Position numbers and translations under genes: made by a program
Part shown: positions 181-16,562 of the stretch, one piece after another
Numbering within the stretch: the first letter of the stretch is position 1
How the letters are laid out: every line of letters starts with the position of its first letter
The notes under the pieces: generated by a model
The model's database searches: none
Told to the model about the DNA's origin: nothing
What the model saw: only the letters and a program-made list of their open reading frames with translations
IMG/VR virus record: IMGVR_UViG_3300025858_000011
DNA: 64,000 nucleotides
Source of the DNA: a virus
Lineage: Duplodnaviria > Heunggongvirae > Uroviricota > Caudoviricetes
Direction: 5' to 3' (one strand)

Positions 181-429
181 TTACTTATTCCTTTCATGAA
201 GTGCTCTTCGCACTCTAATTATGAATTGTGTCAATGTTTCGACTGGCCTTCCTACGTCAGGGGTATTTATGATACCATTCACGATGTGTTTACCTGGACG
301 ACCCCATCTTAACAATGACTGATCAAAATCCTTTTCATCTTTATTTAAAAGAATTTCGATCCGTTTTCTCTTATGAGAGATTTTGTGCAGCCTTGTTTTT
401 TGCTGCCTTTTACCTAATACTTTTTTCAA
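181..429 (-). CDS. hypothetical basic protein (82 aa)
   Basis: six-frame ORF, minus-strand gene run. Confidence 0.4.
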   Translation of the reverse strand: MKKVLGKRQQKTRLHKISHKRKRIEILLNKDEKDFDQSLLRWGRPGKHIVNGIINTPDVGRPVETLTQFIIRVRRALHERNK

Positions 430-436
430 TAACGCC

Positions 437-2056
437 TCACTTTAAAGATAATTTATAAAGAATGTTTCCTTTATAAGCTACTATTACGCCCTCTTCAGCA
501 GACAGCCGAAGTCCTTGTGGAAGACCAGAATCTCTTACTTCTAAGACTTTGAGATCCTCTATCCTTCTGATTTCCAAAACATCCTCGTCATTTAAAATAA
601 CAAATACTGAGTTATTTTTCATCCCAAAATTTATATCTGTTGTGTACACATCTTGTTTTAGAATATGTACATAAGATGAAAAATCTTTGTTAAAAACAAC
701 AAGGTGACGATCATATCTATTATTCTTATACCCTATTACAATTAGTACCCTTCCGATGCGTTTCATTGAGGCGATCTTATATCCGGACAATTCTGGAAGC
801 CTTACATTATGAACGGCTCCATCTTCCGGAAATAATACATATGGATTATTGAGAATATCCTGGTATACCACTCCATCAAAAACTTTTGAACTATTAGGCA
901 TGATGTCCCAAGATGTTGCTATTGAGGCTACATCATTTTTTCCAAATGTAGTTACATCTACCTTGGTGATAGCCCTTTCCTGGACAACGTACAGAGTATT
1001 ATCGGATAATATAATACCTTTTGCTGCCAATGTCAAGTTCAAAAAGGAAACTAGTCCCTTATAATACCTAACATAGAGCTTTTTACCAGCCTCATTAATT
1101 ACATACGGATCTTGACCATTAAAAACAAGTTGCCTTCCATTATAAAACCAATGTTGCCTGATTGAGGTTGGATATTGCTCTATTATATCCATTTGAAGTT
1201 GCTGGGATATAACTTTAATAGGAGCACTTACTACGGCTGCAGGACCAGTCATGCTAACAATTCCCGGGGGAGCTATTCTTGCTCCATCCTGAAAAAGTTT
1301 TTCATACCAGGACATGTACTCTTTTGGAATAATTCCGAAGTCTCTAATATTAGGTGGTAAAGTTGCTCTTTTATCTAACATCGAAACATTCTTTTTCATT
1401 CTCTCTACCATGTCCCTGGGTCCAAAGTCAGGATGTCTTCCCTTAAAAGGATGCGCACCAGTGTATAACATGAAGCTAATTATGGCGATGCCATACCAGT
1501 CTGTTAACTCAGTACACTCCTTGGAAGAGTAATCCTGGACACCCGGGGCCAATGCAGACACCTTATAAGATTTGGTTCCGTAGCTATCTACGTCAATCCA
1601 ATAGATCTTGGAAAGATCGTCGGATATCAAGATATTGAACTCATTAGTATCTCCGATTATAGCAGAATGCCTATGTACCGCCTCCGCGCCTTTAATTGAT
1701 AAATTTACCAATCTAGTCGCAATATCTGCAGTCATATTATTATTTGTCCAAAAATCATTGGATACCGCGACTACCCATTGAAGCGTATTCTTGGCCCAAT
1801 GCATCGCATATCCAATTCTTTTGGTATTTTGAGTAACAAATGCCTTAGGAGCGATGATCATCGGCTCTACTGCCATCGGAGAAAGCTCTTTAAACTTCTG
1901 TTCGGAGATGCATCTTTTAGGATCGTGATATATTTTTATTACTAATCCCATCGGAGAGTGACCATATAATACCGCTTCTCCGCCTGTAGCCAGATAGTCT
2001 TTAGAAGCATTAAGTTCAATTTTACCGATGCCTTCAATATTTAATCTCGTACCCAT
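437..2056 (-). CDS. protein kinase-like (RIO/atypical kinase-like catalytic motif) protein
   Basis: 539 aa; HRHSAIIGDTNEFNILISDD...IYWIDVDS resembles HGDLSEYNILV / IIDVSQ catalytic and metal-binding loops of RIO-type kinases; overlaps next gene (operon). Confidence 0.45.
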   Translation of the reverse strand: MGTRLNIEGIGKIELNASKDYLATGGEAVLYGHSPMGLVIKIYHDPKRCISEQKFKELSPMAVEPMIIAPKAFVTQNTKRIGYAMHWAKNTLQWVVAVSNDFWTNNNMTADIATRLVNLSIKGAEAVHRHSAIIGDTNEFNILISDDLSKIYWIDVDSYGTKSYKVSALAPGVQDYSSKECTELTDWYGIAIISFMLYTGAHPFKGRHPDFGPRDMVERMKKNVSMLDKRATLPPNIRDFGIIPKEYMSWYEKLFQDGARIAPPGIVSMTGPAAVVSAPIKVISQQLQMDIIEQYPTSIRQHWFYNGRQLVFNGQDPYVINEAGKKLYVRYYKGLVSFLNLTLAAKGIILSDNTLYVVQERAITKVDVTTFGKNDVASIATSWDIMPNSSKVFDGVVYQDILNNPYVLFPEDGAVHNVRLPELSGYKIASMKRIGRVLIVIGYKNNRYDRHLVVFNKDFSSYVHILKQDVYTTDINFGMKNNSVFVILNDEDVLEIRRIEDLKVLEVRDSGLPQGLRLSAEEGVIVAYKGNILYKLSLK

Positions 2057-2856
2057 TGAATTGCTCCCATCGATAGATCGTCATAATGTACGATGTTTCT
2101 TTTAGCAAAATCTTTTTCCATTCTTTTCAAACGTCGCTGAACAAATCCTGGAGAGGAATTATTAAACGTAGTTATTTCCTTTATTAGGGAATTTGATGGA
2201 ATAGCAACTAACCTATTAAACTCATTATTATTATAATAAGTCTCGATGCCATCGCTAAAAATAACTACCTGGGATATTTCGCTAACGTCCGCACTTATAA
2301 TGAATACTTCATCAGCTCCATCAGTTTGAGTACGTACTAATGGAATACTGTCCCTATCAGTGTGTATATATTTGCAAGATTTGGTTTTTACTTCTGATAT
2401 ATATTCTTCCTCAGAAGATGAAGAAAGTTTATAACTTAGATAAAAAGGTTTTTCCATTGGATATTCAACGATGTATTGTTGCGAAGATCCATCGGTGTAT
2501 TTAATATATATGCATCCATCCCCAAATAGATAAACATACACCATACCTTCTATTTCAAATACAACTCCCAATGTTGCGTCTAAAGCAGAGACAGGGATAT
2601 CTAACTCGTCAATTATCGATCTAGCACTTTTGATTACAGCCCTTCCAAATCGATCAGGTTCAAAAAGAACATCATCATTAAAGTATTTAATAACGTGGGC
2701 CGCCCGATGGGCAAGAATCCGGGCACCTACGTCAGAATACAAAGCGGAGGAGCATCCGTCAGATATTATGGTGTAATTTTCTCCACTTAGCGCATAATCT
2801 TGACAAGCAAGATGCCCACTACCAATTACGTAATGGGCATCCATCGATATTGTCAA
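2041..2856 (-). CDS. PP2C-like Ser/Thr phosphatase (PPM family) candidate
   Basis: 271 aa; SDGCSS, FGDGCIY, FSDGIETY Asp/Gly-rich motifs typical of PPM metal sites; start overlaps vWA gene stop (ATGA). Confidence 0.45.
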   Translation of the reverse strand: MTISMDAHYVIGSGHLACQDYALSGENYTIISDGCSSALYSDVGARILAHRAAHVIKYFNDDVLFEPDRFGRAVIKSARSIIDELDIPVSALDATLGVVFEIEGMVYVYLFGDGCIYIKYTDGSSQQYIVEYPMEKPFYLSYKLSSSSEEEYISEVKTKSCKYIHTDRDSIPLVRTQTDGADEVFIISADVSEISQVVIFSDGIETYYNNNEFNRLVAIPSNSLIKEITTFNNSSPGFVQRRLKRMEKDFAKRNIVHYDDLSMGAIQWVRD

Positions 2857-3587
2857 ATTGTCAATTGCGCGGATTTGCCCGACCCACGCGCCGATGATTG
2901 TGATGATACTGAAGAAGACACGATGCCAGCGACTTTCGCCAATGACTCTGGGGTTGCGTCCGCAACACCAGTGTAATAACTGATCTGAGCCTCATCTTTA
3001 AAACTTATAAGAGCTGTTTTACATTCTGTATCATTAATCCCGATGAGAATGGAAAGATGTGATGCTAAGCATTCATCATGAACAGACTTTAATAGTTGTG
3101 CCCCGATGTCAAATAAAGCTCTTTTAGATGCATTTTCGACACCGTCAGTAATAGTAATTTGGATACTATTTACATCATAATCTTGACCATACAAGTATTT
3201 TGCATAATCAAAAAGAACCTGCTGCCCTTCGAGGTGTGCATCAATCAAATTCGTAAGATGATCACACTTGAATGGCTTATATTGTGCAAGGATATCGATC
3301 GATTTTACAGGAATGAATCCATGAATCTCTTCGACACCTATTTTGGAATTAAAGATAGAAACCCGCAATAAGATGTTAGCACTTGTAGCACCCTTTTGCA
3401 ATGCTAATACTGCCGTTTTGACCATCTCAAGTAAATCATTAGAGAATGGCTGTGTACTCCCGGTTATATCCACTGACACATTGGCCAGTGTGTATCCTCC
3501 CGGCTCTTTCAAATCTTTTGTGCCAGTTCCGCTATATTGATACCCCATACCGGCATCAAAACTAATGTCATTTGCTAGTCTAGGCAT
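2853..3587 (-). CDS. von Willebrand factor A (vWA) domain protein
   Basis: 244 aa; MIDAS-like VDITGST and downstream ITITDGVEN; first gene of kinase/PP2C/vWA cassette. Confidence 0.55.
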   Translation of the reverse strand: MPRLANDISFDAGMGYQYSGTGTKDLKEPGGYTLANVSVDITGSTQPFSNDLLEMVKTAVLALQKGATSANILLRVSIFNSKIGVEEIHGFIPVKSIDILAQYKPFKCDHLTNLIDAHLEGQQVLFDYAKYLYGQDYDVNSIQITITDGVENASKRALFDIGAQLLKSVHDECLASHLSILIGINDTECKTALISFKDEAQISYYTGVADATPESLAKVAGIVSSSVSSQSSARGSGKSAQLTI

Positions 3588-3596
3588 AACTTTTCC

Positions 3597-4505
3597 TTAA
3601 AAATATTTGTGAACATCTAATGTATTTGAGACTCTCATGCCCTTTGCACGAAACTCATCAATCCAGGCCGTAGTGAGGTGTTCAAAGCCAGTGACGGGAG
3701 AAGAGGCGTTTTCCAAGAAGATCAATTTCCTGCATAGATCGTCTCCCCCGTATTTTACAATGTCACGCGCCGTATTTGCGAGACAATGTGATGAAGCCTC
3801 CCCCATAAGAAGAATAAGATCACCACCAGAAATTACTTGGATAAATGGGGTATTAACCATAGTGCTGGGGTCACTAGGATCTGGCACTTCCGCCTCGATG
3901 GCTGAATAATGCTCAGTTAAAAAGTTGGACCCCTTTGTTACGTAATCAACATTTGCCTGTTGAGTCTTTTCCCAATTGATTAATGCCTTTGAAATTGCTT
4001 CATGTAGTGCTTGCCCACGAGTCCCAATAATGCAATGCTCTGGCCAAATAAGATGCGGATATTTTCCACTTGCTTCTAGGGCCTGATCATATTCTAATAC
4101 TACCTCATATAAAGTTTTGTTTCCATGAGACTTTATTCGCATGCCAGGAGCGAATACGTTCCAGGTTCCATTTTTTAAAAGGTCATATGACATTAATGTG
4201 AATGGAGCAGGATTTTCTCCATGACTATTGATATACATCTTTGGATGAGAAATATCGAACACTCGATGTGAGTCGAGAGTCACATGGGCATCCTCCAGGG
4301 CATCACCATAATCATCAATGAACTTTGCCCCAGTTACCATGTCCTCATGGGCGTGTTCAACGTAAAGTGAGCCACGCCAATTGTGGTCTACTAAGGCAGC
4401 CTCAGCATCAGCGGGTAGGCCTGCTGGTATTGGAGTCTCATTTCCTTTTTTACAAAAATCATCCTCCGGGTCGATAATGACCAGGTGGATCTTTTTCTTA
4501 GACAT
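3597..4505 (-). CDS. isochorismatase-family cysteine hydrolase (nicotinamidase-like)
   Basis: 302 aa; HLVIIDPEDDF (cf. ALLVIDMQNDF), TKGSNF Lys, GEASSHCLANT Cys give a D/K/C triad. Confidence 0.55.
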   Translation of the reverse strand: MSKKKIHLVIIDPEDDFCKKGNETPIPAGLPADAEAALVDHNWRGSLYVEHAHEDMVTGAKFIDDYGDALEDAHVTLDSHRVFDISHPKMYINSHGENPAPFTLMSYDLLKNGTWNVFAPGMRIKSHGNKTLYEVVLEYDQALEASGKYPHLIWPEHCIIGTRGQALHEAISKALINWEKTQQANVDYVTKGSNFLTEHYSAIEAEVPDPSDPSTMVNTPFIQVISGGDLILLMGEASSHCLANTARDIVKYGGDDLCRKLIFLENASSPVTGFEHLTTAWIDEFRAKGMRVSNTLDVHKYF

Positions 4506-4515
4506 ATTATGTCCT

Positions 4516-5226
4516 TTAATTTATTTGTATTACTTTATTATATAATAATGTGAATTTGTCATTTATCTCAATGTCTTGGTGAAAATGACCGAAAAACCAT
4601 TTGGTAAATTTGACTTTGGACTGAATCTCATCAAAATATTTACGTAGACCTACTTCGAAACCTGCTTTACCTAGGATTTCATCATACATAAATATCTTGC
4701 ATAGTTGCTCAAATACAGAACTTGGGCAAGTATGGGTAATGATAAAGTCTACTTCTGGATATTTCTCCAAAGTGAATAATCCATTCTCCATCTCCGCGTA
4801 TGAGGGAAGTTCTTCCTCCCACCAAGATACAAATTCGGTTCTATAGGCCTTGTCTATTGAGGCGGCTCCACCGAATGTAAAAAAAGTCTTACCTTCGATA
4901 TTATAAACATTGCCTCGATACAGGCGAAAAATGGAATCAGAAACTATACCCACAACGGAACCAAACATTTCCTGGATTGGAAGCCTATTTAAACGATAAA
5001 AGTTTTCGTGATTTCCATCGACGAAAAGTGTAGTCCACGGTTTATCGTTATACCAATCGATGAGATATTTTTCTGTCTCGGTTGGTACTGTATCCCAAAT
5101 TATTCCCATGTCCCCGGCAACAATTACGTAATCACTCTTTGTAAGAGTTTTTCCAATTGGAAAACTCTTACTGGATAAATCATTAAAATCAATTACCCCG
5201 TGTTTGTCACCTGTAACAAATATCAA
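4516..5226 (-). CDS. calcineurin-like metallophosphoesterase
   Basis: 236 aa; GDKHG, GDMG, DGNHE, GHFH metallophosphatase motifs. Confidence 0.7.
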   Translation of the reverse strand: MIFVTGDKHGVIDFNDLSSKSFPIGKTLTKSDYVIVAGDMGIIWDTVPTETEKYLIDWYNDKPWTTLFVDGNHENFYRLNRLPIQEMFGSVVGIVSDSIFRLYRGNVYNIEGKTFFTFGGAASIDKAYRTEFVSWWEEELPSYAEMENGLFTLEKYPEVDFIITHTCPSSVFEQLCKIFMYDEILGKAGFEVGLRKYFDEIQSKVKFTKWFFGHFHQDIEINDKFTLLYNKVIQIN

Positions 5227-5250
5227 TATAACTCCTTTCTATTTTTAAAA

Positions 5251-5279
5251 TAAAAAAAGGGGATATTGCCAATCCCCTT
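5251..5279 (-). terminator. intrinsic terminator (minus)
   Basis: GGGGAT-ATTGCCA-ATCCCC hairpin followed by T7 on minus strand, after structured RNA/tRNA-Leu pair. Confidence 0.6.
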
Positions 5280-5289
5280 GTTTCTGGTG

Positions 5290-5530
<241 letters not shown>

Positions 5531-5533
5531 TTG

Positions 5534-5616
5534 TACCGAAAGCTGGACTTGAACCAGCATAGCTTACGCCAATGGTTTTTGAAACCATCGTGTCTACCAA
5601 ATTCCACCATTTCGGT
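5534..5616 (-). tRNA. tRNA-Leu(CAA)
   Basis: cloverleaf by eye: acceptor ACCGAAA/TTTCGGT, anticodon loop TTCAAAA, long variable arm, T-loop TTCAAGT. Confidence 0.75.
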
Positions 5617-5626
5617 TTGTAACTTG

Positions 5627-5711
5627 TGCCAGGGGCGGGGGTCGAACCCGCATGACCTTGCGATCGTTGGATTTTAAGTCCAGTGCGTCTGCCTAGTTTC
5701 GCCACCCTGGC
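5627..5711 (-). tRNA. tRNA-Leu(TAA)
   Basis: acceptor GCCAGGG/CCCTGGC, anticodon loop CTTAAAA, long variable arm, T-arm GCGGGTTCGACCCCCGC. Confidence 0.75.
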
Positions 5712-5764
5712 ATAACTAACTAAGCCCAGCAATCCCCGTTCTGGCCAGGCTTAGTTATATTTAC

Positions 5765-6730
5765 TTATTTAACATCAAAAAACAATTTTCTTTCATCATC
5801 TCCCCATGAGATGAATTTAGGCCCTTTATTGGATTTAATGTCTACCGCGTCTAATCCCCATTGCCCAATTGAGTATGTATTAACATACACCGCAATTTTA
5901 TGGTCTCCCAAAGCATACATAAAATCGAGAGCGGCTGATGTAGTTTCTTTATCAGTATTACGAAGTTGATTACAGGCCAATGTTACCTTTGTAACACCAC
6001 AATCTGCTAGTCTACTAGCAAATTTTTCAGCATTACTTGGAATTATAAAAGGAGCTATTGACACATATAAGTCAACTCCCGCTTTTGTGAGTATTTCAAT
6101 ATTTCGAAGTCGAGAATCTATGCTCGACGCCTTACAAAATCCAGGGACATCGTGGTCGGTCTCAACGCTAACCCCTAGTAAATTATGTGCAGGAAGGGGC
6201 TTTCCAGCAAGAATTCTCTTGACAAAAGTCTCGGGACACCTAGTGTGCTCGAACCATTTTTGCCAGTATCCCAATACCATCATGTCAAAAATGAGATCGT
6301 GCATCCACGTCGGATATTGCCAATGAAAGGCTTCAAATGACGATTGCACGTAGATAGTATGTGATTTTTTGGGAAGTTTTAATTCTCTAAGGGCAGACTC
6401 CCTAAAAATTGCAAACTTTTTTTCACAAAATGGTTTGTTATTGGGAACTATTTGCATTATGCACTCTTTGCATCCAATAGGACACATGCCCATAAATGGG
6501 GTACACGTTAGTGTGTATAACGTTGGACAAGGCTCTTCTGCCCATTTTGGAACTCCCATCTCATTTACTTCTAAGTAATTTTTATCTCTTTGCTGTAACA
6601 ACCCCAGATACGAAGAAGTCTTAAGGCAATAATCAGTACTATATATTATTACTGCTCCCGCCTTAATTTGAGAAAAAACTTCAGCGTTTCTTTTACCAGA
6701 AGGGACCCAAACTTTTTTAGTAGTTTCCAC
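5765..6730 (-). CDS. radical SAM enzyme
   Basis: 321 aa; CPIGCKEC = CxxxCxxC cluster motif. Confidence 0.6.
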   Translation of the reverse strand: METTKKVWVPSGKRNAEVFSQIKAGAVIIYSTDYCLKTSSYLGLLQQRDKNYLEVNEMGVPKWAEEPCPTLYTLTCTPFMGMCPIGCKECIMQIVPNNKPFCEKKFAIFRESALRELKLPKKSHTIYVQSSFEAFHWQYPTWMHDLIFDMMVLGYWQKWFEHTRCPETFVKRILAGKPLPAHNLLGVSVETDHDVPGFCKASSIDSRLRNIEILTKAGVDLYVSIAPFIIPSNAEKFASRLADCGVTKVTLACNQLRNTDKETTSAALDFMYALGDHKIAVYVNTYSIGQWGLDAVDIKSNKGPKFISWGDDERKLFFDVK

Positions 6731-6751
6731 ATAGAGCTCACTTTCTCTACT

Positions 6752-7648
6752 TTAAAAAATAATAGTTGCCCTATTACCCCATCCAGTATAAAGATGCCCA
6801 TCAGGAAGCCAAACCAGGCTTCTGACATCAGACGTATTGTTCTCTTCCTGGATACAATAATCTGAAAATGCGATGGAGATCCCATCTTTTTCCCAGATTT
6901 TCATTCCATATGGAAGAACGGTGTGGGGCTTTTTTCCAAGTCGTACCTGGTTTTCTTCAAATTTATAAGCCATTTCCCGATACCTTTCGGAGTCCACATG
7001 GGCTTTAATCCAGGTTACCTGGGAGCACTTGCGGGCATTTCCAGGAAACGTGACATTTCTTATCAGGAATTGTCTGACTGGACTTTCTTTTACCATTTCG
7101 AAAATGGTTACAAAGTCTCCCACGATCATGTCGGTTAGATTAATACAGACCCGGACAACGATTCCCTTTTTATCAAGTGCGATGAACAACTCCTTATATT
7201 CATCAATTGTCTCAAGCGTGTCCACCGAAAAGGCAACTACGCGGACTCCCGATGTAAAGAGCTGCGGGATTCGGTCTTGATTCTTATTTAACCATATCCC
7301 ATTCGTCTGTATTTCAATCAACATCGGCCAGAATGCTTTAGCCATTTTTATAATGGCACCATAGTTCAAAAATGGTTCTCGTTTCCCGGTTAAGGTACAC
7401 ACCGCCGCACCTGCGCATCTGGCAAAGTTTTTTACAAACTTTACGTTATTGTCAATAAGACCTTGATTGGTGATGACCATGCCAGTGATTTGACTAATGC
7501 AATACGGACAGCCTTTATCACAGGTTTCTCCAGGAATTGCGATTGTCAGGTTCCAGGATTTCATATTATTCCTTTCTAAATAAAAATTAATTGGCCGTCC
7601 CATTTTATGTCGAGGGGTTCGATTGACAAGGATTTTGTTCGACACCAT
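6752..7648 (-). CDS. radical SAM enzyme (activase/QueE-like small rSAM)
   Basis: 298 aa; IPGETCDKGCPYC CxxxCxxC motif near N-terminus. Confidence 0.6.
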   Translation of the reverse strand: MVSNKILVNRTPRHKMGRPINFYLERNNMKSWNLTIAIPGETCDKGCPYCISQITGMVITNQGLIDNNVKFVKNFARCAGAAVCTLTGKREPFLNYGAIIKMAKAFWPMLIEIQTNGIWLNKNQDRIPQLFTSGVRVVAFSVDTLETIDEYKELFIALDKKGIVVRVCINLTDMIVGDFVTIFEMVKESPVRQFLIRNVTFPGNARKCSQVTWIKAHVDSERYREMAYKFEENQVRLGKKPHTVLPYGMKIWEKDGISIAFSDYCIQEENNTSDVRSLVWLPDGHLYTGWGNRATIIF

Positions 7649-7701
7649 TTGTTCCTTGCCTACGTAAGTGACGGATCAACTTACTAACGGCCAATTAATA
7701 A

Positions 7702-7995
7702 TTACAATTTAAATAGCTCATGTCCGGGTGCTATAAAAATAGGAAATGGACTGTCATTCACACTAATCCCATTTTCAGCAAAAACTGCCAGGCTTTCCTT
7801 TTCCAACATAGGAGCAAGTTCCGGATCATATGTAATTTCAATTACATGTGACCTTCTAGAAAGACTATCAGAAATATCCTTGGACTCACGAAGCCCCAGG
7901 CCAGTTAAAAGCCGAATTTGCCGAATTACAAATATCTTATTCACAAACTTAGATGGCTTAGATAATGTAAGTGTCCAGGTTTTCATTTTTTGCAC
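7702..7995 (-). CDS. hypothetical protein (97 aa)
   Basis: ORF upstream of rSAM pair, same strand. Confidence 0.4.
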   Translation of the reverse strand: MQKMKTWTLTLSKPSKFVNKIFVIRQIRLLTGLGLRESKDISDSLSRRSHVIEITYDPELAPMLEKESLAVFAENGISVNDSPFPIFIAPGHELFKL

Positions 7996-8158
7996 TCCTG
8001 GTTAGTCATTGGTATACCAAAGTCGCGCATCATTCCGCGAAATTCATCGTAGTCTGATGTCATTGCAGTTATAAACTCCTTCATTGCTTTTCCTTTCTGT
8101 TAAGGTTAGTGCGGGTGAGAGGCATCGAACCTCCACGACCTTACGGTCACTAGATCCT

Positions 8159-8957
8159 CTTACTACAATACCTTTCAGTATCCATTTCTGTTGTAGTCTG
8201 GACTATATCATCACCTACAGTTTTATCTGTTTAGGGCTCGGCGTATAGTCTCTGAGGGGTCATTTCGGACTTCCCTGCGGATTATCAATATATCCTATAA
8301 ATTTTTACTTGATAGTCATTCCATAATTATGTATATTATGGTAGACAGATAGTATTATAGGCTTTACGAGTTTCCCGCATATAGCCAAGTACAAATTAGT
8401 TATTTCTAATTAATCGCTCAGTGTAATGAAGATAGATAAAAATGTTCTATATGAGTTATATACATTGCAGAAGCTAACTCCTTCGAAAATAGCTAGGAAA
8501 TTTAAATGCAATCATAAAACCATTCGTAGTTGGTTAAAAAAATATAATATTGCTATGCGTAGCCCTGCAGAATACAATTATTTAGCACGTCCGACACATA
8601 TTAGCCCCACTGATTTACTATTATTCAGTGACATTAGCATTGCTGGGCACATCGCCTATTTGTGTGAGGGATGGCATACTAATAAAACTACCCAATTATA
8701 TTTTTGTAATACTGATCCAATATTAATCAACTTATTCTGTAAAATGTTATTTACAATTTATAGTATTAATCATATTAGATACATCATTATTTCTCCAACT
8801 TTAGAACTATCAACAAAATTTAAAACTCTTTATCCTTCTGCAAAGATTTATATAGAACCGCTTAGAAAAAATCCTATTATACGAATCTATGCTGGAGGAA
8901 AAACATTAGCAAAAGAGTTTATAAATAATGCTTATAAAATATCCTCTTCATTAAGTT
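8159..8957 (-). other. group I self-splicing intron in tRNA-Leu(TAG), inserted after anticodon position 34
   Basis: P ATGCGGGAAACT, Q AATCCGCAGG, R TCAGAGACTATACG, S GATATAGTCCAGAC on minus reading; 5' exon ends in U, intron ends GTAAG (omega-G). Confidence 0.7.
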
Positions 8958-8959
8958 AA
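8426..8959 (+). CDS. HTH-domain protein encoded antisense inside the tRNA-Leu intron (possible homing-endonuclease-like ORF)
   Basis: 177 aa; N-terminal helix-turn-helix LTPSKIARKFKCNHKTIRSWLKKYNI; IAGHIAYLCEG weakly LAGLIDADG-like; stop codon abuts 5' splice site. Confidence 0.5.
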   Translation: MKIDKNVLYELYTLQKLTPSKIARKFKCNHKTIRSWLKKYNIAMRSPAEYNYLARPTHISPTDLLLFSDISIAGHIAYLCEGWHTNKTTQLYFCNTDPILINLFCKMLFTIYSINHIRYIIISPTLELSTKFKTLYPSAKIYIEPLRKNPIIRIYAGGKTLAKEFINNAYKISSSLS

Positions 8960-9135
8960 GTCTAGCGCGTATTCCAATTTCACCACACCCGCATAAAAAT
9001 GTAGCAACTAGTCAGTTTTAGGATTGATCAGATCCCTAATGCTCAAGAGCCCCTCGAGGTAACCGGCGCGTCGAGTTCTTCTTCTGACCCAAGCCTGTCA
9101 CAGTAGACTTTTTAGTGGGCTGCTACAATATCTTT

Positions 9136-9714
9136 TTAGGGCAACTGCCAGTACATATCGTACTTTGAGTAGCTCTCTTTATTTTTCTTTCTACAGATTT
9201 GTGTCTCCACAAATCCCAAGTCCACCAGGTCGATGAATCCATCACCGTTTACATCAGCGTAGGCATCGTATCCGGTATTTCCTCTCACTGCACCCCAGTG
9301 TACCGAAGTATGCACGATGTTAAAGTCGTCATCATTGACGACTTTGTCCCCATTTACGTCACAGAAGACGTGCGGAGGGTTTCCATAAAAACTCGCCAGG
9401 GTATCACTAACAACCAGGGTACGAGTTTTATATACAGCAACGACAAAGAACGTAAGTCTCTCTGTATATTTTTGTACCAAGATCTGTTTCTTTAAACTAG
9501 TTCTGGAGTACGGAATACCCCCGTTCATTGGAATAGGGGCTTCTGGATTTGCGTAGCTTCTTTGGTAAAGTTTAAAATACAGTGGTTTTTCCGCTGGAAC
9601 TTTCCAAGTAATTCTAAGAGTGTCATCAGCAAAAACTGGTACTCTGATTTTTTCGCGTGCCGACACACTTATTACCAATAAAAGAATAAGTGCAATAACC
9701 AATACTTTTTTCAT
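9136..9714 (-). CDS. secreted protein with dockerin-like Ca-binding repeats
   Basis: signal peptide MKKVLVIALILLLVISVSA; DVNGDKVVNDDDFNIV and DVNGDGFIDLVDLGFV dockerin type I-like repeat pair. Confidence 0.55.
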   Translation of the reverse strand: MKKVLVIALILLLVISVSAREKIRVPVFADDTLRITWKVPAEKPLYFKLYQRSYANPEAPIPMNGGIPYSRTSLKKQILVQKYTERLTFFVVAVYKTRTLVVSDTLASFYGNPPHVFCDVNGDKVVNDDDFNIVHTSVHWGAVRGNTGYDAYADVNGDGFIDLVDLGFVETQICRKKNKESYSKYDMYWQLP

Positions 9715-9941
9715 TTTAAAAATCCTTCAATCTTTTGAATAGTTTTTGGCATTAAATGTGCATTTCCCGCCAAGATATCTTTAAGCCGAGATAACTTTAT
9801 CCCAACTTGCTTAGCAAAGTCCTCAGAAGAAACTTTTCTAGTTTTTAATGCAGAAGCCAACTTTTCCGCAAAGATATTTTGTTCCCTGACTGTTCTTTTC
9901 GTTCTGTCAGGAATGTTTTCAAGTAGTTTACTAAATTTCAT
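9711..9941 (-). CDS. XRE-family HTH transcriptional regulator
   Basis: start moved to internal ATG at 9941 (GGAGG SD; avoids overlap with tRNA 3' exon); HTH SEDFAKQVGIKLSRLKDILAGN. Confidence 0.6.
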   Translation of the reverse strand: MKFSKLLENIPDRTKRTVREQNIFAEKLASALKTRKVSSEDFAKQVGIKLSRLKDILAGNAHLMPKTIQKIEGFLK

Positions 9942-9959
9942 AAATACCTCCAAAATTGG

Positions 9960-10226
9960 AGCCTGGGAGAGGACTTGAACCCCCAACCCGCTGATTACCT
10001 TACCACTATAGTTTTCACTACCGATTACTCGTTTGTGGTCTGGACTATGTCTTCACCATCTCAGGTGCAACACGTATAGTCTCTACGGATCCCCTTAGGT
10101 TTCCTCGGCGTTGCCATACATAATATGTAAGGGTTCACCGATACAGTGTTGTACATTCTATAAATTTTTTTCTCTATAGAAGCCCATTTTTTAGGTCAGC
10201 AGCTCTACCAATTGAGCTACCCAGGC
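9960..10226 (-). tRNA. tRNA-Thr(TGT) candidate interrupted by 194-nt group I intron (exons 10193..10226 and 9960..9998)
   Basis: 5' exon GCCTGGG-TA-GCTCAATTGGTAGAGC-T-GCTGA-CCT; 3' exon GTAA-TCAGC-...GGTTCAAGTCC...CCCAGGC-T; unusual C33 makes the anticodon call tentative. Confidence 0.6.
9999..10192 (-). other. group I intron (Azoarcus-like small IC-type core) in tRNA
   Basis: TATGGCAACGCCGAG, GAAACCTAAG, CCGTAGAGACTATACG, CATAGTCCAG elements; ends GTAAG like the tRNA-Leu intron. Confidence 0.65.
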
Positions 10227-10286
10227 TTAAAAGTCACACGGGTTTCCTCGCCAAGGTCCTTACCCCTATGATGCGATCGACGGACA

Positions 10287-10320
10287 TCCGGAGGGCATAT
10301 TGCTTGCTCCGGATTTTTTA
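10287..10320 (+). terminator. intrinsic terminator (plus)
   Basis: CCGGAG..CTCCGG hairpin followed by ATTTTTTAT. Confidence 0.5.
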
Positions 10321-10900
10321 TAATGGATGCCTTGTTGTGACTTGGATTACTATAATCATGATAGACACTTATTGAGAGCGACTCAACGCCTGCCTATTTT
10401 AGATTGGTGATTCCGTAATCCTAAACGTCCCCGCTTCCACGGGTTTCGCTTGATAATACCGTATGGCGACAGTTTGTAACATTGGGCCAACCTTGCCGGA
10501 ATGCCCGGTTACAATTATCAATCATTTGCGTGACCCCTTGCGCTGTAGCAAGATTTAACAATTCACAAGGGATACCCTTTAGGTATTCTCAAATTCACAC
10601 CTTCTTTTGCACATAGTTTACTATGTGAGTTTTAAATAAGTAATGTCACGGGAGACCGAGCATAAGGATTACGATTCCTTGCTAGTCTACCCTTCGATTT
10701 AGGTGCTACTCGAAGTAGCCACCGCGACATTGTTTATTATATAAATAACACATGTGGGAGCGAACCCTTAGTACGGTGAACTCTTTGGGTGTGGTTGCCC
10801 AAAAAGCGCATACTGCTAAGTAGGTAATATCCCCATGAAGGATATTTACCATATTCCACAATCTTGCCCACTTACGCTATAAATTTTTAAGTGATCAAAT

Positions 10901-11164
10901 TCACATGTGTCGCGTTTTAAATAACATTTTTACTACTTCAAACAAATCTGGTGCAGATCCGGTCGTCTTGTCGTCTGGATTATCGCTGAATCCGGTACAA
11001 GTCTCTAGCCAGACTGGGTCAAAATTCGCCGGCCAGAGAAACCATCCCATCCGGATTCCATGTAGGTTCCCAGTTACATGTGCGGTATTATTCACACATC
11101 CCGAGTGTGCATCTCCTGGAACATTTCGACGATGAACACATTTATAACAATCTGGAGTGGCCAT
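10901..11164 (-). CDS. hypothetical Cys/His-rich protein (87 aa)
   Basis: ORF; overlaps start of NADAR gene by 23 nt. Confidence 0.35.
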   Translation of the reverse strand: MATPDCYKCVHRRNVPGDAHSGCVNNTAHVTGNLHGIRMGWFLWPANFDPVWLETCTGFSDNPDDKTTGSAPDLFEVVKMLFKTRHM

Positions 11165-11591
11165 TCAAATTTGTTCTCACCTCCATTAATAGCTTTCCAA
11201 GAACGTTTTCTCCTGGTATTTCCATACAGTGTTCGCATAAACAATTTCCCCAAAAATTGTCATGCCAGTAATTTCCCTCTTGTAATGGTTGGTCTCCAGT
11301 GTCACAAAGAAGACCGCTGAACGGTTCCTTGCTGAATTTTTTAACCAGGAGTTCCTTCATTAGGTCTACCTTTACTTGATTCCAATCCGGTCGTAAGGGA
11401 TTTACCAATCTTCCGAGTCGTTTTGCCTGACCGGGAGTTCCGGCTGCAATTCTCGCACGTTCATTGTTATCAAGTGATTTAGCCGCCTGAAACGCGTTTT
11501 CTACAGAATGATAAATTTTATTATCAAATTCTACATCAGCAGGATAAAAATTTGAAAGAAACTCGTATTTTCCTATAAATAACACTATCAT
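11142..11591 (-). CDS. NADAR (YbiA/DUF1768) domain protein, ADP-ribose processing
   Basis: 149 aa; FLSNFYPADVEFDNKIYHSVENAFQAAK is the hallmark NADAR N-terminal motif. Confidence 0.65.
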   Translation of the reverse strand: MIVLFIGKYEFLSNFYPADVEFDNKIYHSVENAFQAAKSLDNNERARIAAGTPGQAKRLGRLVNPLRPDWNQVKVDLMKELLVKKFSKEPFSGLLCDTGDQPLQEGNYWHDNFWGNCLCEHCMEIPGENVLGKLLMEVRTNLNGHSRLL

Positions 11592-11776
11592 CGTAGTTTC
11601 CTTTTATAATTTATAATCGTTATTCCATTAAGTTGTTTTGTTTGTGGATCGATGCGCATGATTGCTTCTACTTCTGTAGATCTGCAGGCTCGTGGATTTC
11701 CAAATGAAATATACATTACATCTGATTCTTTATCATATGAAAACGACACTGTTTCTGAAGACAGTTCTTCACACAT
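11588..11776 (-). CDS. DUF2283-like small protein
   Basis: 62 aa; YDKESDVMYISF matches the YDxExDxLYI signature. Confidence 0.4.
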   Translation of the reverse strand: MCEELSSETVSFSYDKESDVMYISFGNPRACRSTEVEAIMRIDPQTKQLNGITIINYKRKLR

Positions 11777-11921
11777 ATAGCCTCCTTGATTAAATTAATT
11801 TGTGCTGGCCCGCAGACCAGCACATGTAAGAATTTCACTTACATAATATGCCTTTGGGAATCGAGCCCAAATAGACTCCCATCTATATAGATGGGGGTGT
11901 TTCCATTACACCATTGCATCG

Positions 11922-11994
11922 CTCCAGGAGGAGGGCTCGAACCTCCGACCTGATGGTTAACAGCCATCCGCTTCCACCACTGAGCTACCCTGGA
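11922..11994 (-). tRNA. tRNA-Asn(GTT)
   Basis: acceptor TCCAGGG/TCCTGGA, D GCTCAGTGGTGGAAGC, anticodon loop CTGTTAA, T GGAGGTTCGAGCCCTCC. Confidence 0.7.
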
Positions 11995-12002
11995 GTAGTA
12001 CT

Positions 12003-12446
12003 TCAATTGAGCAAATCTTTACACCAACGAAGTATTTGCTTAGCACTCTTTTCTATATTTGAAATTTTTGTGTCACCATTGTCTGGCACCGATGCCAGTT
12101 GGGCCCTATAAGCTGGTGTCCAATTCTTTTGTTTATATTCTTCGGGGATGGAGATATATATTGTCAATACTCCATTTCCAGGGTCATTATAAGTTATCTG
12201 TTCAGGAGTAATTGGTACTAATTCTTGAAGATCAGCGGATCTTCTGATTACCAAAGACCGTCTGCTGTTGGCAATCACTATTTTATTACAGAAGATAATC
12301 ACCTGATAGGCCTCATCAATATCCGCATCTTCGTCCCGCACAATAATTTCGATTTGCTCCTTCTTATTAATCCGAGCTTCAAAATATGAAAACTCGGGAG
12401 TACCTTCTGTAGCAAATTCAAGTGATTCCATAATCTGTACTGACAT
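12003..12446 (-). CDS. hypothetical protein (147 aa)
   Basis: ORF. Confidence 0.5.
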   Translation of the reverse strand: MSVQIMESLEFATEGTPEFSYFEARINKKEQIEIIVRDEDADIDEAYQVIIFCNKIVIANSRRSLVIRRSADLQELVPITPEQITYNDPGNGVLTIYISIPEEYKQKNWTPAYRAQLASVPDNGDTKISNIEKSAKQILRWCKDLLN

Positions 12447-12653
12447 ACATCACCTTTCTTTTAAATTATAGTATTAGCGGCCTCGTAAGGGCCAGTCCTG
12501 GCGGAAACCTGCTTGTTGAAGTTCAAGCTCTCCCGCAACCAGACCTATCGAATATGTCAGCCGGTCCCCCATATTGCAAATCTGGGTTACAGCCTATCTG
12601 ACATATTACCTCAATCTCCTGGATATCGGCCATTAACTTGCCGTTGCTAACTG

Positions 12654-12724
12654 CTCAGGGAGAGGGGCTCGAACCCCCGTTTGTAGATCCAAAATCTACA
12701 GTCCTACCATTGAACGATCCCCGA
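12654..12724 (-). tRNA. tRNA-Gln(TTG)
   Basis: acceptor TCGGGGA/TCCCTGA (one GU), D GTTCAATGGTAGGAC, anticodon loop TTTTGGA, T GGGGGTTCGAGCCCCTC; overlaps 3' end of ORF 12696..13358 by 29 nt. Confidence 0.55.
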
Positions 12725-13358
12725 GTGACTCTTGAATTTCTCGCTGTTTCTTCTGTTTTTCCCGATTGCGATTATAGATAATCAACCGGTCCCAAGCCTC
12801 ATCTCGATCTTTAACATGGTCAAGGATGAGAGACATATTAGCATCGAATAACTTTCGAGCTATAAGCTTCCTTTCCTCATCAGTGTTATTCTGGTAGTAC
12901 CTAACAGTATCAACGTAATACCTGGACGTCTTAACAACGAACTTCCAGGGATACTTAACTTGGTACATTTTCCTTTTTTCAAACGAAAATGGAGGAATGA
13001 AACACTTCTTTTGTTGCTCTGTAAGAGAGTTGAAAGTCTTCTCTCCAATTTCTCTGAGACCCTGATCGAACCGAAACTCAAAGAAGAAACCATTCCCGAA
13101 TTTAGTTTTGGGGGTGCTGTTTTTTCCTCGCGTAAACCATTCCCGGTTCACAAGAGGAAGAATGCTCTTAAGTATCGGTCCTTCTGAAGATCGCAGCAGG
13201 TCGGGACGAACCTCATAGGTATGTTTGTATCCCCAGAATTGGGAAGAAGTTTTTACTTCGATGGGACGCTCTTTCCAAATCTCGTTCCATCTCCGTAGGA
13301 GACGCCGTGCCTCTTTTTGTTCTAACTCTTTTTTATGTTTTCTGCTTTCTCTGCTCAT
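12696..13358 (-). CDS. hypothetical basic protein (220 aa)
   Basis: ORF; Lys/Arg-rich. Confidence 0.5.
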   Translation of the reverse strand: MSRESRKHKKELEQKEARRLLRRWNEIWKERPIEVKTSSQFWGYKHTYEVRPDLLRSSEGPILKSILPLVNREWFTRGKNSTPKTKFGNGFFFEFRFDQGLREIGEKTFNSLTEQQKKCFIPPFSFEKRKMYQVKYPWKFVVKTSRYYVDTVRYYQNNTDEERKLIARKLFDANMSLILDHVKDRDEAWDRLIIYNRNREKQKKQREIQESLGDRSMVGL

Positions 13359-13410
13359 CGGCTATTACCTGATTAGAGTTAATTGCACAAACCTAATTAT
13401 CTAATAGTTG

Positions 13411-13494
13411 TGCGGAGAGAAGGATTTGAACCTCCGAAGCCTTACGGCAGCGGATTTACAATCCGCCCCCTTTGTACCACTTGGGTATCCCCGC
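13411..13494 (-). tRNA. tRNA-Tyr(GTA)
   Basis: acceptor GCGGGGA/TCTCCGC, anticodon loop TTGTAAA, long variable arm, T GGAGGTTCAAATCCTTC. Confidence 0.75.
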
Positions 13495-13495
13495 A

Positions 13496-13530
13496 TAAAA
13501 AAAGCCCGTCAGATTAGATCCAACGGGCTT
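13496..13530 (-). terminator. intrinsic terminator (minus)
   Basis: AAGCCCGT..ACGGGCTT hairpin + T7 on minus strand, 5' of tRNA-Tyr. Confidence 0.6.
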
Positions 13531-13656
13531 ACCGAATCATCCTGACATACTAATCCACACTATTTAATAAATTTTGATATGTGAGGGATATTAACGTCAA
13601 GAAGTTCATATATAAATATAATATATTCGAATGTAATGTGCAAGTGAATTCTTAAA

Positions 13657-13941
13657 TTATTTTCTTTCTTCCGGCTCTCCACAGTAAATGCACCCATACT
13701 CCTTAGGATTATAAGAACATATATGATCAGGAGAAACTGGGCAATACCAACCAAGATCTCGTTCACAACGGGAACAAACGGCGGAGGAGGAGTCACCTGG
13801 GTCTTCTATTTCTTTTACATCATGCTTACATCTGCACAATGCATCACGCGCAAGGTTACTAAGCCTTATGGTTTCCCGCATTTGTTCATCCGTAAGTTCC
13901 GCTCCGGACTCCCAAGCTTCTACCAAATTTTCATGATTCAT
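13657..13941 (-). CDS. Cys-rich zinc-finger-like hypothetical protein
   Basis: 94 aa; multiple CxxC pairs. Confidence 0.45.
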   Translation of the reverse strand: MNHENLVEAWESGAELTDEQMRETIRLSNLARDALCRCKHDVKEIEDPGDSSSAVCSRCERDLGWYCPVSPDHICSYNPKEYGCIYCGEPEERK

Positions 13942-14024
13942 TTTTTGCGCCTTGATATACTAACTGTTACCACAACACTATAAGTATCAATAATGCCATA
14001 GGATTTTCCTTTTTTTTAAATTAG

Positions 14025-14098
14025 TAGGCCCGGGTGGGCTTGAACCACCGACCTGACGCTTATAAGACGCCGGCTCTAACCAACTGAGCTACAGGCCC
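14025..14098 (-). tRNA. tRNA-Ile(TAT)
   Basis: acceptor GGGCCTG/CGGGCCT, D GCTCAGTTGGTTAGAGC, anticodon loop CTTATAA, T GGTGGTTCAAGCCCACC. Confidence 0.65.
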
Positions 14099-14100
14099 AT

Positions 14101-14188
14101 AATATATAGTAGTAGGGACAGGATCAACCTGCATACATGGCCGCAGCCCTGCTCTAATTTGAGCTACCCTACTTTATTTGTATTATTG
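14101..14188 (-). pseudogene. tRNA-like element, degenerate
   Basis: acceptor AGTAGGG/CCCTACT and D-arm GCTCAAATTAGAGC present but no convincing anticodon or T arms. Confidence 0.25.
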
Positions 14189-14276
14189 CGGAGAGTAGAG
14201 GATTTGAACCCCTGGAGCTTTTAGGGCCCTACAGTTTTCAAGACTGCCGCCATAAGCCAGACTCGGCCAACTCTCC
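14189..14276 (-). tRNA. tRNA-Ser(TGA)
   Basis: acceptor GGAGAGT/ACTCTCC, anticodon loop CTTGAAA, long variable arm, T AGGGGTTCAAATCCTCT. Confidence 0.75.
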
Positions 14277-14462
14277 AATTATTTAAACAAGAAACCTACA
14301 ATGTCAACCAATGTCGCCTTAAAGACTTTGTGCCCACGATGTCTTGCCTGACATTGAGTTAGGCTACTACCAAATGTCATCTTTTTCAAGGAGGGAACTT
14401 TAAAAACTTTCCTTCCCTTTTGCAACGCGATTAGTTTTGCTTTGAATGTCATAACACTCTCC

Positions 14463-14702
14463 TCAATCTTGATAAACAAACGTTAAATCAGTATTCTCGG
14501 GAAGATTGCTAAATTCACAAATAATATCTTCTAATAAAATTTCTTCAGCCTCTTTTAACGAGAACTCTTTTTCAAATATTGCTACTTTTTCTTTTAATGC
14601 TAAAAGAGTAATTTCTTTGATATCAAGCCTCTTTATAAGCTCAGACTCCTTGGAATTTAATCTCACCAGGAGATCCAGCGGCTGCATTACTGACTTTATC
14701 AT
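14463..14702 (-). CDS. hypothetical protein (79 aa)
   Basis: ORF. Confidence 0.35.
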   Translation of the reverse strand: MIKSVMQPLDLLVRLNSKESELIKRLDIKEITLLALKEKVAIFEKEFSLKEAEEILLEDIICEFSNLPENTDLTFVYQD

Positions 14703-14862
14703 TTTTTAATTTGGTTACTTGTGTGAATACTGCTCCACAACGTTTGCATACTTCAATATTCACTGATAGGTCATCGTTTGAAATATTTATAGGAGCGTAG
14801 TGTGTAACACTTTTACCCCAAAATTCAATTCTCTTATGACCAAATAAACAAAAAATATTCAT
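14641..14862 (-). CDS. zinc-ribbon hypothetical protein (73 aa)
   Basis: CxxC...CxxC; ORF. Confidence 0.4.
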   Translation of the reverse strand: MNIFCLFGHKRIEFWGKSVTHYAPINISNDDLSVNIEVCKRCGAVFTQVTKLKNDKVSNAAAGSPGEIKFQGV

Positions 14863-14883
14863 ATTAATTTCTGATTAAAATAG

Positions 14884-14956
14884 TGAGACCGGCGGGGTTT
14901 GAACCCACGACCCGTTGCTTAAAAGGCAACTGCTCTGCCAACTGAGCTACGGTCTC
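14884..14956 (-). tRNA. tRNA-Lys(TTT)
   Basis: acceptor GAGACCG/CGGTCTC, anticodon stem GTTGC/GCAAC, loop CTTTTAA, T GTGGGTTCAAACCCCGC. Confidence 0.8.
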
Positions 14957-14977
14957 GTTAATGTAAATTAAGTATCG

Positions 14978-15050
<73 letters not shown>

Positions 15051-15080
15051 TTTAGTTCCTATTATTCTTATACCAATAAG

Positions 15081-15165
15081 CGGAGAGAACAGGGATTGAA
15101 CCTGTGTATCCTTTCGGATAGTCTCGGTTTAGCAAACCGGCCCCTTACCACTTGGGTATCCCTCC
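15081..15165 (-). tRNA. tRNA-Ser(GCT)
   Basis: acceptor GGAGGGA/TCTCTCC, anticodon loop TTGCTAA, long variable arm TATCCGAAAGGATA, T ACAGGTTCAATCCCTGT. Confidence 0.7.
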
Positions 15166-15175
15166 AAAATTTTAT

Positions 15176-15210
15176 GATAAAAAAAGCGTAGCCCTGTAGC
15201 AGGGCTACAG
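15176..15210 (-). terminator. intrinsic terminator (minus)
   Basis: GCGTAGCCCT..AGGGCTACAG hairpin + T-run on minus strand. Confidence 0.55.
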
Positions 15211-15504: not shown

Positions 15505-15515
15505 TCAGTAGTCTC

Positions 15516-15788: not shown

Positions 15789-15855
15789 GTGTAGTTCTCC
15801 AATGATAAAGAGGGAGGACTGGCCTCCCTCTCATAACAACCAGCGGACCTGTGAC

Positions 15856-16182: not shown

Positions 16183-16242
16183 AGTTAATTCCTTCTTTTT
16201 TTATGTTAATGCATTAACACCCTCCCGGCTGGAGGCGTGTTG

Positions 16243-16559: not shown

Positions 16560-16562
16560 AGT

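Follow-up and report, generated by a model that had tools for sequence, protein, structure and literature searches.

What do a kinase, a phosphatase, a von Willebrand factor A (vWA) protein and two further hydrolases do side by side on DNA of likely phage origin? The question is raised by positions 437-5226 of the window, by which we mean the whole 64,000-nucleotide stretch analysed from IMG/VR virus record IMGVR_UViG_3300025858_000011. Five co-oriented open reading frames (ORFs) are tightly packed there on the minus strand, transcribed from 5226 to 437, and encode in this direction a metallophosphoesterase (MPE), a nicotinamidase-like enzyme (NIC), a vWA protein, a PP2C phosphatase and a kinase. 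The original prediction, made from the letters alone, had described the ORFs and their spacings as they are; its five domain calls were all upheld by Pfam and profile searches, which did not assign the kinase or PP2C to unrelated folds. What was found is a relative of the TerY-P signalling class, in a version with a propeller kinase, that is tied to a nicotinamidase and to the salvage of nicotinamide adenine dinucleotide (NAD+) and is common to huge phages and diverse bacteria. Of the five genes, four (NIC, vWA, PP2C and kinase) very probably form one functional unit. In the reading that we prefer, to which we assign a probability of about 0.55, a kinase-gated NIC would feed the deamidated (Preiss-Handler) route of NAD+ salvage from nicotinamide.

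The cassette was traced in phages and in bacteria. The phage set comprised 76 non-redundant loci, obtained by tblastn and hidden Markov model searches of three huge-phage assemblies, from 80 IMG/VR loci and from contigs reached by protein look-ups. PP2C was present in 74 of these loci, vWA in 68 and NIC in 64, and the exact order NIC, vWA, PP2C, kinase on one strand occurred in 55. Where blocks were permuted (L014, L050 and L086), NIC stayed with vWA and PP2C with the kinase; NIC and vWA lay on the same strand and less than 400 nt apart in 51 of the 63 phage loci and 51 of the 55 cellular loci that hold both. The bacterial set was collected by scanning one genome per GTDB species for the kinase motif W-x14-HP[FY][KR]GxHP, written as a degenerate DNA pattern, and yielded 105 loci, all 105 encoding full-length family members. 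At least 44 of these 8-kb loci contain the complete ordered tetrad, many of the others being clipped by the locus edge. About ten (including L128, L133, L161, L172, L187 and L193) have NIC, vWA and kinase in order with no intervening PP2C and represent a natural variant without the reset enzyme.

Tetrad-family loci are found in three complete Capsulimonadaceae chromosomes and in contigs of about 0.8-1 Mb from Polyangiaceae, Chthonomonadaceae and proteobacteria. Further bacterial loci belong to Myxococcota, Desulfobacterales, Thiotrichales/Beggiatoa, Rhodoferax/Accumulibacter, Planctomycetota and bacteria of the candidate phyla radiation, and in a Saccharimonadales genome the tetrad lies among housekeeping genes for ribosomal proteins and tRNA modification. 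Since the same order recurs in well over 100 independent loci, the arrangement is far beyond chance. In the 81 loci with all four proteins, their pairwise distance matrices correlate with r values of 0.60-0.73, reached by none of 500 permutations, and phage versions are interspersed with cellular ones. NIC is the best conserved member, with a mean identity of about 50%, compared with 28% for PP2C. Megablast of the cassette against 50,697 phage records gave no match, tblastn of the kinase found only three unannotated huge-phage assemblies, and PHROGs recognised MPE alone among the cassette proteins.

The fifth gene, encoding MPE (4516-5226, minus strand, 236 aa), stands apart. The protein matches Pfam Metallophos at 1.7e-8 (35.6 bits against a cutoff of 21.5) and phrog_1649 at 6e-29, and its translation contains the motifs GDKHG, GDMG, GNHE and GHFH. 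MPE accompanies the cassette in three of the 76 phage loci (L004, which is the window's own sequence, L018 and L061) and is found by itself in 310 records of Mycobacterium, Streptomyces, Prevotella and gut phages; being rare with the cassette and widespread alone, it is a neighbour and not a module member, probably co-transcribed with the tetrad in the window. The proposal of a single five-gene module was thus not sustained, nor was the view of NIC as an add-on hydrolase, NIC being the most conserved member of the core. MPE was also considered as the ADP-ribose-1''-phosphate phosphatase of an extended NARP1, one of the described phage NAD+ pathways, and this assignment was rejected, that enzyme being a Macro-domain protein.

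NIC (3597-4505, minus strand, 302 aa), like the vWA protein and the kinase, gave failed or marginal results in single-sequence searches and was assigned through a family profile. Alone, it showed a weak match to PncA of M. tuberculosis (5.9e-4) and none at the gathering score of Pfam PF00857 (Isochorismatase); some relatives pass this cutoff (42.7, 33.6 and 27.9 bits) and others fall just under it. A profile of 34 members matched yeast Pnc1 (2h0r) at 1e-17 and four other nicotinamidases at 2.7e-12 to 2.2e-9. The catalytic triad Asp12/Lys191/Cys241 is invariant across these 34 diverse members and aligns with the triad of Pnc1. Also invariant are Asp78 and His80 ('DSH') and His157 ('WPEHC'), aligned with 'DWH' and 'WPVHC' of Pnc1, at the positions of D51, H53 and H94 that we take to be its metal ligands. 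An Asp/His/His metal site distinguishes nicotinamidases among isochorismatase-fold enzymes. All catalytic and metal-site residues are intact in the window copy. NIC is a divergent nicotinamidase-like subfamily, predicted to deamidate nicotinamide to nicotinate. The family is large, with 1948 clusters (at 50% identity) at E<=1e-3, and jackhmmer started from a canonical PncA seed converges on it. Its members are about 270-300 aa long, canonical enzymes about 180-215 aa; they exceed PncA by some 60-100 residues and contain insertions. Two relatives are of a different build: P0163 (1629 aa) is fused to ankyrin repeats and an ion-transport channel domain, and P0256 (1452 aa) to DOMON and cytochrome b561 domains; these eukaryotic-looking channel-enzyme architectures suggest a signalling use of the NIC domain.

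The vWA protein (2853-3587, minus strand, 244 aa) had no Pfam match, and PF00092 was matched by five of 30 homologues. The residues of the metal-ion-dependent adhesion site (MIDAS), D40, S44, T112 and D148, are invariant in the family, hhalign related the family to E. coli YegL (E 5e-5, probability 67.5%, 172 columns), and several homologues are named 'YegL' in the JGI annotation. The window protein can be regarded, with moderate confidence, as a stand-alone TerY/YegL-type vWA protein with a MIDAS site. It ends in a conserved Ser-rich C-terminal tail (2856-2948, minus strand), LAKVAGIVSSSVSSQSSARGSGKSAQLTI, whose consensus over phage and cellular loci (122 unique sequences sampled) is LAKLAxFVSxSISxQSQxLGTGGPSQSLxF; 59 of the 122 unique tails fit the strict pattern S.S[VILMA]S[ST].S, and hhalign aligns the tail with that of YegL. 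The tail is a candidate phospho-acceptor or docking peptide, the latter being considered because it is conserved in Variovorax strains that have no kinase nearby.

The PP2C phosphatase (2041-2856, minus strand; 271 aa from a TTG start, 267 aa from the ATG at 2844) matches Pfam PF13672 (PP2C_2) at 5.9e-13. In an alignment of 18 members, its metal-binding residues D33, D113, D202, D259 and D260 never vary, and hhalign matched it with E. coli PphC (E 2.5e-5), itself a member of PF13672 at 5.7e-52. The kinase (437-2056, minus strand, 539 aa) begins with a Hanks-type Ser/Thr kinase domain of the YegI type (1262-2056, aa 1-265). As a single sequence it was sub-threshold for Pfam Pkinase, and an 18-member profile matched dozens of solved protein kinases. 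Gly25, Lys41, Asp136 and Asp155 are invariant, Asn141 nearly so, and a subdomain-IX-like Asp186-Trp187 is present; hhalign with YegI gave a probability of 98.7% and an E-value of 3.7e-16 over 252 columns. Because the DW motif is typical of protein and not of small-molecule kinases, and because of the homology to YegI, the enzyme is taken to be a protein kinase; a small-molecule kinase was considered and rejected on these grounds and on that of the fold. The C-terminal 268 aa (437-1243, minus strand, aa 272-539, followed by the stop) fold as a seven-bladed beta-propeller, not as the zinc ribbon of TerY-C or an OB fold, and TerY-C had no Pfam match in the kinase. The propeller is presumed to be a sensor or docking domain.

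The neighbourhood of the tetrad in related loci points to NAD+ salvage. Nicotinate phosphoribosyltransferase (NAPRTase) was found in 27 of the 76 phage loci and 19 of the 105 bacterial loci, NAD synthase (NadE) in 24 and nine, and NMNAT in 14 and one, respectively; 33 of the phage loci have one or more of these genes within 8 kb. All 65 phage matches to these genes are on the kinase strand, and NadE is less than 300 nt from a tetrad gene in 15 of 24 cases; of the 19 bacterial NAPRTase genes, 18 share the strand of the tetrad and 13 lie less than 300 nt from it. A Nudix protein of the NrtR type, with a winged-helix domain, was found in 29 loci of bacteria and 10 of phages, and of the 35 bacterial Nudix matches 30 are less than 300 nt from a tetrad gene. 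Pfam spot checks supported NAPRTase (8e-80 and 4.7e-73), NAD synthase (5e-38), a cytidylyltransferase-like NMNAT and NrtR. In relatives, a same-strand string NAPRTase-NadE-NIC-vWA-PP2C-kinase-NMNAT-NrtR is recurrent. In L007, NAD synthase and a NAPRTase-like gene directly follow the kinase, and in L009 NAPRTase and NMNAT are near the cassette. The most complete NAD island found is that of L197 (ENA ERZ25039527 contig_24681, 455 kb), where positions 3600-20200 hold, in order, Nudix, NrtR, PnuC, a NadR-like gene, two unknown ORFs, the tetrad, a NadD-like gene, a canonical PncA, NAD kinase, NAPRTase and a deoxyribosyltransferase-like gene. Taken as a whole, the unit is likely to act in NAD+ or nicotinamide metabolism.

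The window has its own genes of related type on the minus strand, namely a NADAR ORF (11142-11591, 6e-23), a Nudix ORF (16639-17187, 4.8e-20) and two nucleoside 2-deoxyribosyltransferase-like ORFs (26507-26953 and 29629-30138) transcribed in the same direction as the cassette. These genes add to the NAD/ADP-ribose theme of the accessory region, to which the ARPP-1 protein described below is also counted. The Nudix protein is too short for an NrtR and gave no winged-helix match. With seeds from related loci, the window yielded no relatives of NMNAT, PnuC or NadR; Adps, Namat and Nampt, at which no search was aimed, are missing from the top 25 Pfam families for window ORFs of at least 150 aa.

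In the preferred reading, NIC would convert nicotinamide to nicotinate, from which NAPRTase, NMNAT/NadD and NAD synthase would rebuild NAD+; for the window phage, NAPRTase, NMNAT and NadE would presumably be host functions or be encoded elsewhere in the phage genome. The kinase would sense a protein or small-molecule cue of NAD+ stress through its cytoplasmic propeller and would phosphorylate a partner, the best candidate being the vWA protein's Ser-rich tail, by analogy with ArnB (see below). The vWA protein would hold or release NIC by means of its MIDAS site, which might bind NIC or the protein's own tail, and PP2C would reset the switch. For a phage, the benefit would be to regain NAD+ from the nicotinamide freed by NAD+-cleaving host defences, while sparing the cost of a wasteful pathway that is always on. 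Such gating would be sensible because waste and some toxicity have been reported for constitutive phage NAD+ synthesis by NARP2 (bioRxiv 10.64898/2026.01.28.702374). This specific switch model is doubtful in its details. Somewhat less doubtful, and still tentative, is the proposal that huge phages and many bacteria possess an undescribed fourth, deamidated 'NARP', with a dedicated long-form nicotinamidase that a TerY-P-type vWA/PP2C/kinase-propeller switch would turn on, at the post-translational level, only when NAD+ is cleaved.

Several points weigh against the kinase-gated salvage pathway. The phosphorylation target, the contact between vWA and NIC and the ligand of the propeller are predictions. 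A NAD gene within 8 kb was found in just 43% of phage loci, a figure without a random-gene baseline, and the NAD genes were traced by jackhmmer from a few Pfam-annotated seeds, with Pfam spot checks on nine proteins. Searches of the 64-kb window with seeds from related loci did not find NAPRTase, NadE or NMNAT. Many of the 'bacterial' loci are contigs of metagenome-assembled genomes (MAGs) and may be misbinned phages. A second nicotinamidase stands beside NMNAT in L197 and L073, that of L197 being a canonical PncA of 201 aa, so NIC may act on a different substrate or as a sensor. Cultured Variovorax strains carry a NIC-vWA pair with kinase and PP2C absent nearby, annotated in RefSeq as 'cysteine hydrolase' and 'hypothetical protein'; in L195 (Variovorax sp. 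WDL1 'plasmid 2', NZ_LR594690.1, 816 kb, linear) the pair is located within 5600-11850. It is flanked by two Nudix genes and a macro-domain gene on one side and by NAD kinase on the other, and a deoxyribosyltransferase-domain protein is also encoded. Since this pair occurs without kinase or PP2C, NIC and vWA can apparently work unswitched. Finally, triads like TerY-P are otherwise known as antiphage defence systems (PMC11090510), which favours a reading of NIC as the effector of a conflict system.

That alternative survives best, and we consider it unlikely. The tetrad would be a conflict system of the TerY-P class, serving superinfection exclusion in phages or defence in bacteria, in which the kinase, on sensing a competitor, would unleash NIC. 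NIC would destroy nicotinamide or nicotinamide nucleotide and so starve rivals that use NARP1 or NARP2, both of which require nicotinamide, and the owner alone would make use of nicotinate. The homology of the triad to YegL-PphC-YegI/TerY-P agrees with this view, as do the antiphage modules of TerY-P type just mentioned, and the module is mobile and patchy across phyla, its phage and cellular versions being intermixed. However, PADLOC gave no TerY-P match (E<=0.1) or other meaningful defence match for the window proteins or for two bacterial sets, the neighbours are NAD biosynthesis genes and NrtR and not restriction or abortive-infection genes, and the setting in the Saccharimonadales genome is one of housekeeping genes.

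The host-takeover operon of the original prediction, in which the kinase and two phosphatases of a five-gene operon would rewire host proteins and the extra hydrolases would be accessory, is improbable. It would account for the tight spacing and co-orientation, for the intact state of kinase, PP2C and MPE, and for the terminator-like hairpin immediately upstream of the first gene. But MPE is not conserved with the other four genes, the tetrad is also present in bacterial chromosomes, where host takeover is meaningless, the best conserved member is NIC, which co-evolves with the switch, and the linkage to NAD genes is left unexplained. An anti-defence role, which had been suggested as well, is still plausible; phosphorylation-based takeover is disfavoured by the NAD+ gene context of the relatives and by the chromosomal tetrads.

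A similarly low probability is given to a NIC that acts mainly as a sensor; by binding or turnover of nicotinamide or an ADP-ribose-related ligand it would report NAD+ cleavage to the vWA/kinase switch, the output of which would lie elsewhere, for instance in transcriptional control together with NrtR or in the control of NAPRTase or NadE. Such a role would fit the presence of a second nicotinamidase in L197 (the canonical PncA) and L073, the roughly 60-100 residues by which NIC exceeds PncA, the many tetrads directly adjoined by NrtR, and the eukaryotic relatives fused to ion-channel and cytochrome b561 modules. The invariance of all catalytic and metal residues in 34 diverse members argues for turnover instead, and the tetrad encodes no output domain. 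That the genes are unrelated neighbours in a crowded accessory region, forming no system, would agree with the dense, co-oriented nature of such regions (one strand over about 42 kb here) and is effectively refuted by an order conserved in well over 100 loci of phages and several bacterial phyla and by correlated evolution.

At the locus itself, MPE and NIC are separated by 10 nt and NIC and vWA by 9 nt, PP2C and the kinase overlap by 16 nt, and at the vWA/PP2C junction there is an overlap of 4 nt with the TTG start of PP2C or a gap of 8 nt with the ATG. An identical 5.9-kb contig from another sample shows the same five genes and the small downstream ORF, with PP2C called from the ATG. This small basic ORF (181-429, minus strand, 82 aa) begins 7 nt downstream of the kinase, and neither relatives nor a Pfam or PHROGs family were detected for it. 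Upstream of MPE, a consensus scan found a terminator-like hairpin with a T-run (5257-5279, minus strand), consisting of an 8-bp stem with 4 GC pairs and then TTTTTATTTT; it is a pattern match only. The hairpin, read from 5279 to 5257, sits between a tRNA-Leu pair (upstream) and the cassette and is a possible upstream limit of the transcription unit. A promoter scan was uninformative, shuffled sequence giving more matches than the real one.

The window has 39% G+C and is transcribed from the minus strand up to about 42 kb and in the opposite direction beyond. At about 42000 a change in the sign of the GC skew coincides with this minus-to-plus flip of gene orientation, which could mark a point of divergent transcription or a replication-related landmark. 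Among small ORFs, 21 tRNA genes extend over 28 kb (5533-33717, minus strand); they include two tRNA-Ile(UAU), adjacent pairs of Leu(CAA)/Leu(UAA) and Lys(UUU)/Lys(CUU), and Arg(GCG) beside Met. This array resembles the tRNA bank of a jumbo phage. Other genes encode a phage-type primase-helicase, a ligase, peptide deformylase, RadC, a Band_7 pair, NADAR and Nudix, and cellular core genes were not found in the window. Cassette relatives share IMG/VR contigs, as long as 618 kb, with genes for a T4-type portal, prohead protease and gp25. Because of the tRNA array, the phage-like genes and the relatives on contigs with virion genes, a jumbo phage is the likely source of the window, so that the phage-borne nature claimed at the outset is likely; counting against it, Pfam and PHROGs identified no virion gene within the 64 kb, and the parent 204-kb contig is filed by NCBI under a Bacteroidales MAG.

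Other ORFs of the minus strand deserve mention. Upstream of the tRNA-Leu pair, ORFs 5765-6730 and 6752-7648 gave sub-threshold matches to radical SAM (1.1e-5) and DUF5131 (0.006) and may be a tRNA- or nucleoside-modifying pair. An ARPP-1 domain protein (20034-21059, 8.6e-26) abuts a 505-aa ORF (21061-22578) without a family match. ARPP-1 stands for 'ARG and Rhodanese-Phosphatase-superfamily-associated', and ARPP proteins come from predicted ADP-ribose-centred conflict systems. A tandem SPFH/Band_7 pair occupies 30564-32479, and Band_7 is also found near the cassette in the related phage contig L005. A 192-aa ORF (9136-9714) contains a type I dockerin domain (9e-8), which is unusual for a phage.

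The depletion and reconstitution of NAD+ is a central front in the conflict between phages and bacteria, and the three described phage NAD+ pathways use the amidated branch, none of them being reported as regulated after translation. If the kinase-gated salvage pathway is correct, it would provide the first concrete enzymatic output for a phospho-switch of the TerY-P class. A TerY-P homologue tied to one enzyme and one pathway in more than 150 independent loci offers a testable hypothesis for what such switches control. The work also brings forward a large uncharacterised subfamily of nicotinamidases, with members from phages to eukaryotic channel fusions. Experiments are feasible, since the NIC-vWA pair is available in cultured Variovorax and the homologous triad in E. 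coli.

Among known systems, the closest is the YegL-PphC-YegI/TerY-P triad, which consists of the same three families in the same one-strand order vWA, PP2C, kinase. The TerY-P triad is reportedly attributed to Anantharaman, Iyer and Aravind in 2012. In E. coli K-12, yegL (vWA), pphC (PP2C) and yegI (kinase) follow the order of the window triad. YegI, which crosses the membrane twice, is active and phosphorylates itself (bioRxiv 10.1101/819920), PphC is an active PP2C-like phosphatase (bioRxiv 10.1101/303594), and TerY-P combines a TerY-like vWA protein and a PP2C with a Ser/Thr kinase fused to a zinc ribbon (PMC11090510; PMC4978471). The original prediction had recognised vWA, PP2C and Ser/Thr kinase as a recurrent bacterial cassette, and the hhalign matches place it in this class (PMC11090510). 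The kinases differ at the C-terminus, which is a cytoplasmic seven-bladed propeller in the window type, two membrane passes in YegI (10.1101/819920) and a zinc ribbon in TerY-P (PMC11090510). The window type also adds NIC as a fixed fourth member, and its relatives neighbour NAD+ salvage genes, whereas TerY-P neighbours DNA-processing or secretion genes.

TerY-P-like triads with an OB-fold kinase are reported to work on their own as antiphage systems (Gao et al. 2020, cited after PMC11090510). Like the module described here, they are three-gene vWA/PP2C/kinase cassettes on mobile DNA, without an obvious effector of their own. Their kinase ends in an OB fold and not in a propeller, and, in contrast to them, the window module has an enzymatic partner and its relatives sit in biosynthetic operons. 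Because PADLOC gave no match, the module is not filed as a known defence system; given its propeller as well, it is considered a relative of the TerY-P class and not a member of a defined defence family.

A further parallel for the switch is ArnB of Sulfolobus, from the ArnA/ArnB system with the kinases ArnC and ArnD, a MIDAS-bearing vWA protein. Hanks kinases phosphorylate its C-terminal region, on which the binding of its partner depends (PMC6509490). The likeness is one of analogy only: the reader is an FHA protein, the output is motility gene expression, and the C-terminus of ArnB is a helical bundle and not a short Ser-rich tail. For the enzyme, PncA and Pnc1 share the catalytic triad and metal site with NIC, which, compared with canonical PncA, is longer, with insertions, always paired with vWA and sometimes found alongside a canonical PncA. 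In relatives, NIC shares an operon with pncB-type NAPRTase, NadE, NadD/NMNAT and NrtR, as in Preiss-Handler/NrtR operons. Broad surveys of jumbo-phage functions and of viral NAD/ADP-ribose systems mention no nicotinamidase and no PP2C, and a search of open-access full text found nothing relevant linking nicotinamidase or NrtR with vWA, PP2C or a kinase, so that a prior mention outside that text is possible.

The described phage pathways are NARP1 (Adps and Namat, with an optional Macro phosphatase), NARP2 (Nampt and Nmnat) and NARP3 (PnuC and a NadR-like protein), with nicotinamide as the starting material of NARP1 and NARP2. None of the three has a nicotinamidase, a deamidated route or a kinase/phosphatase switch. 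The window holds only the putative entry enzyme and the switch. What the tetrad of huge phages would have in common with NARP1-3, if the kinase-gated salvage pathway is correct, is the phage-encoded restoration of NAD+ against NAD+-depleting immunity.

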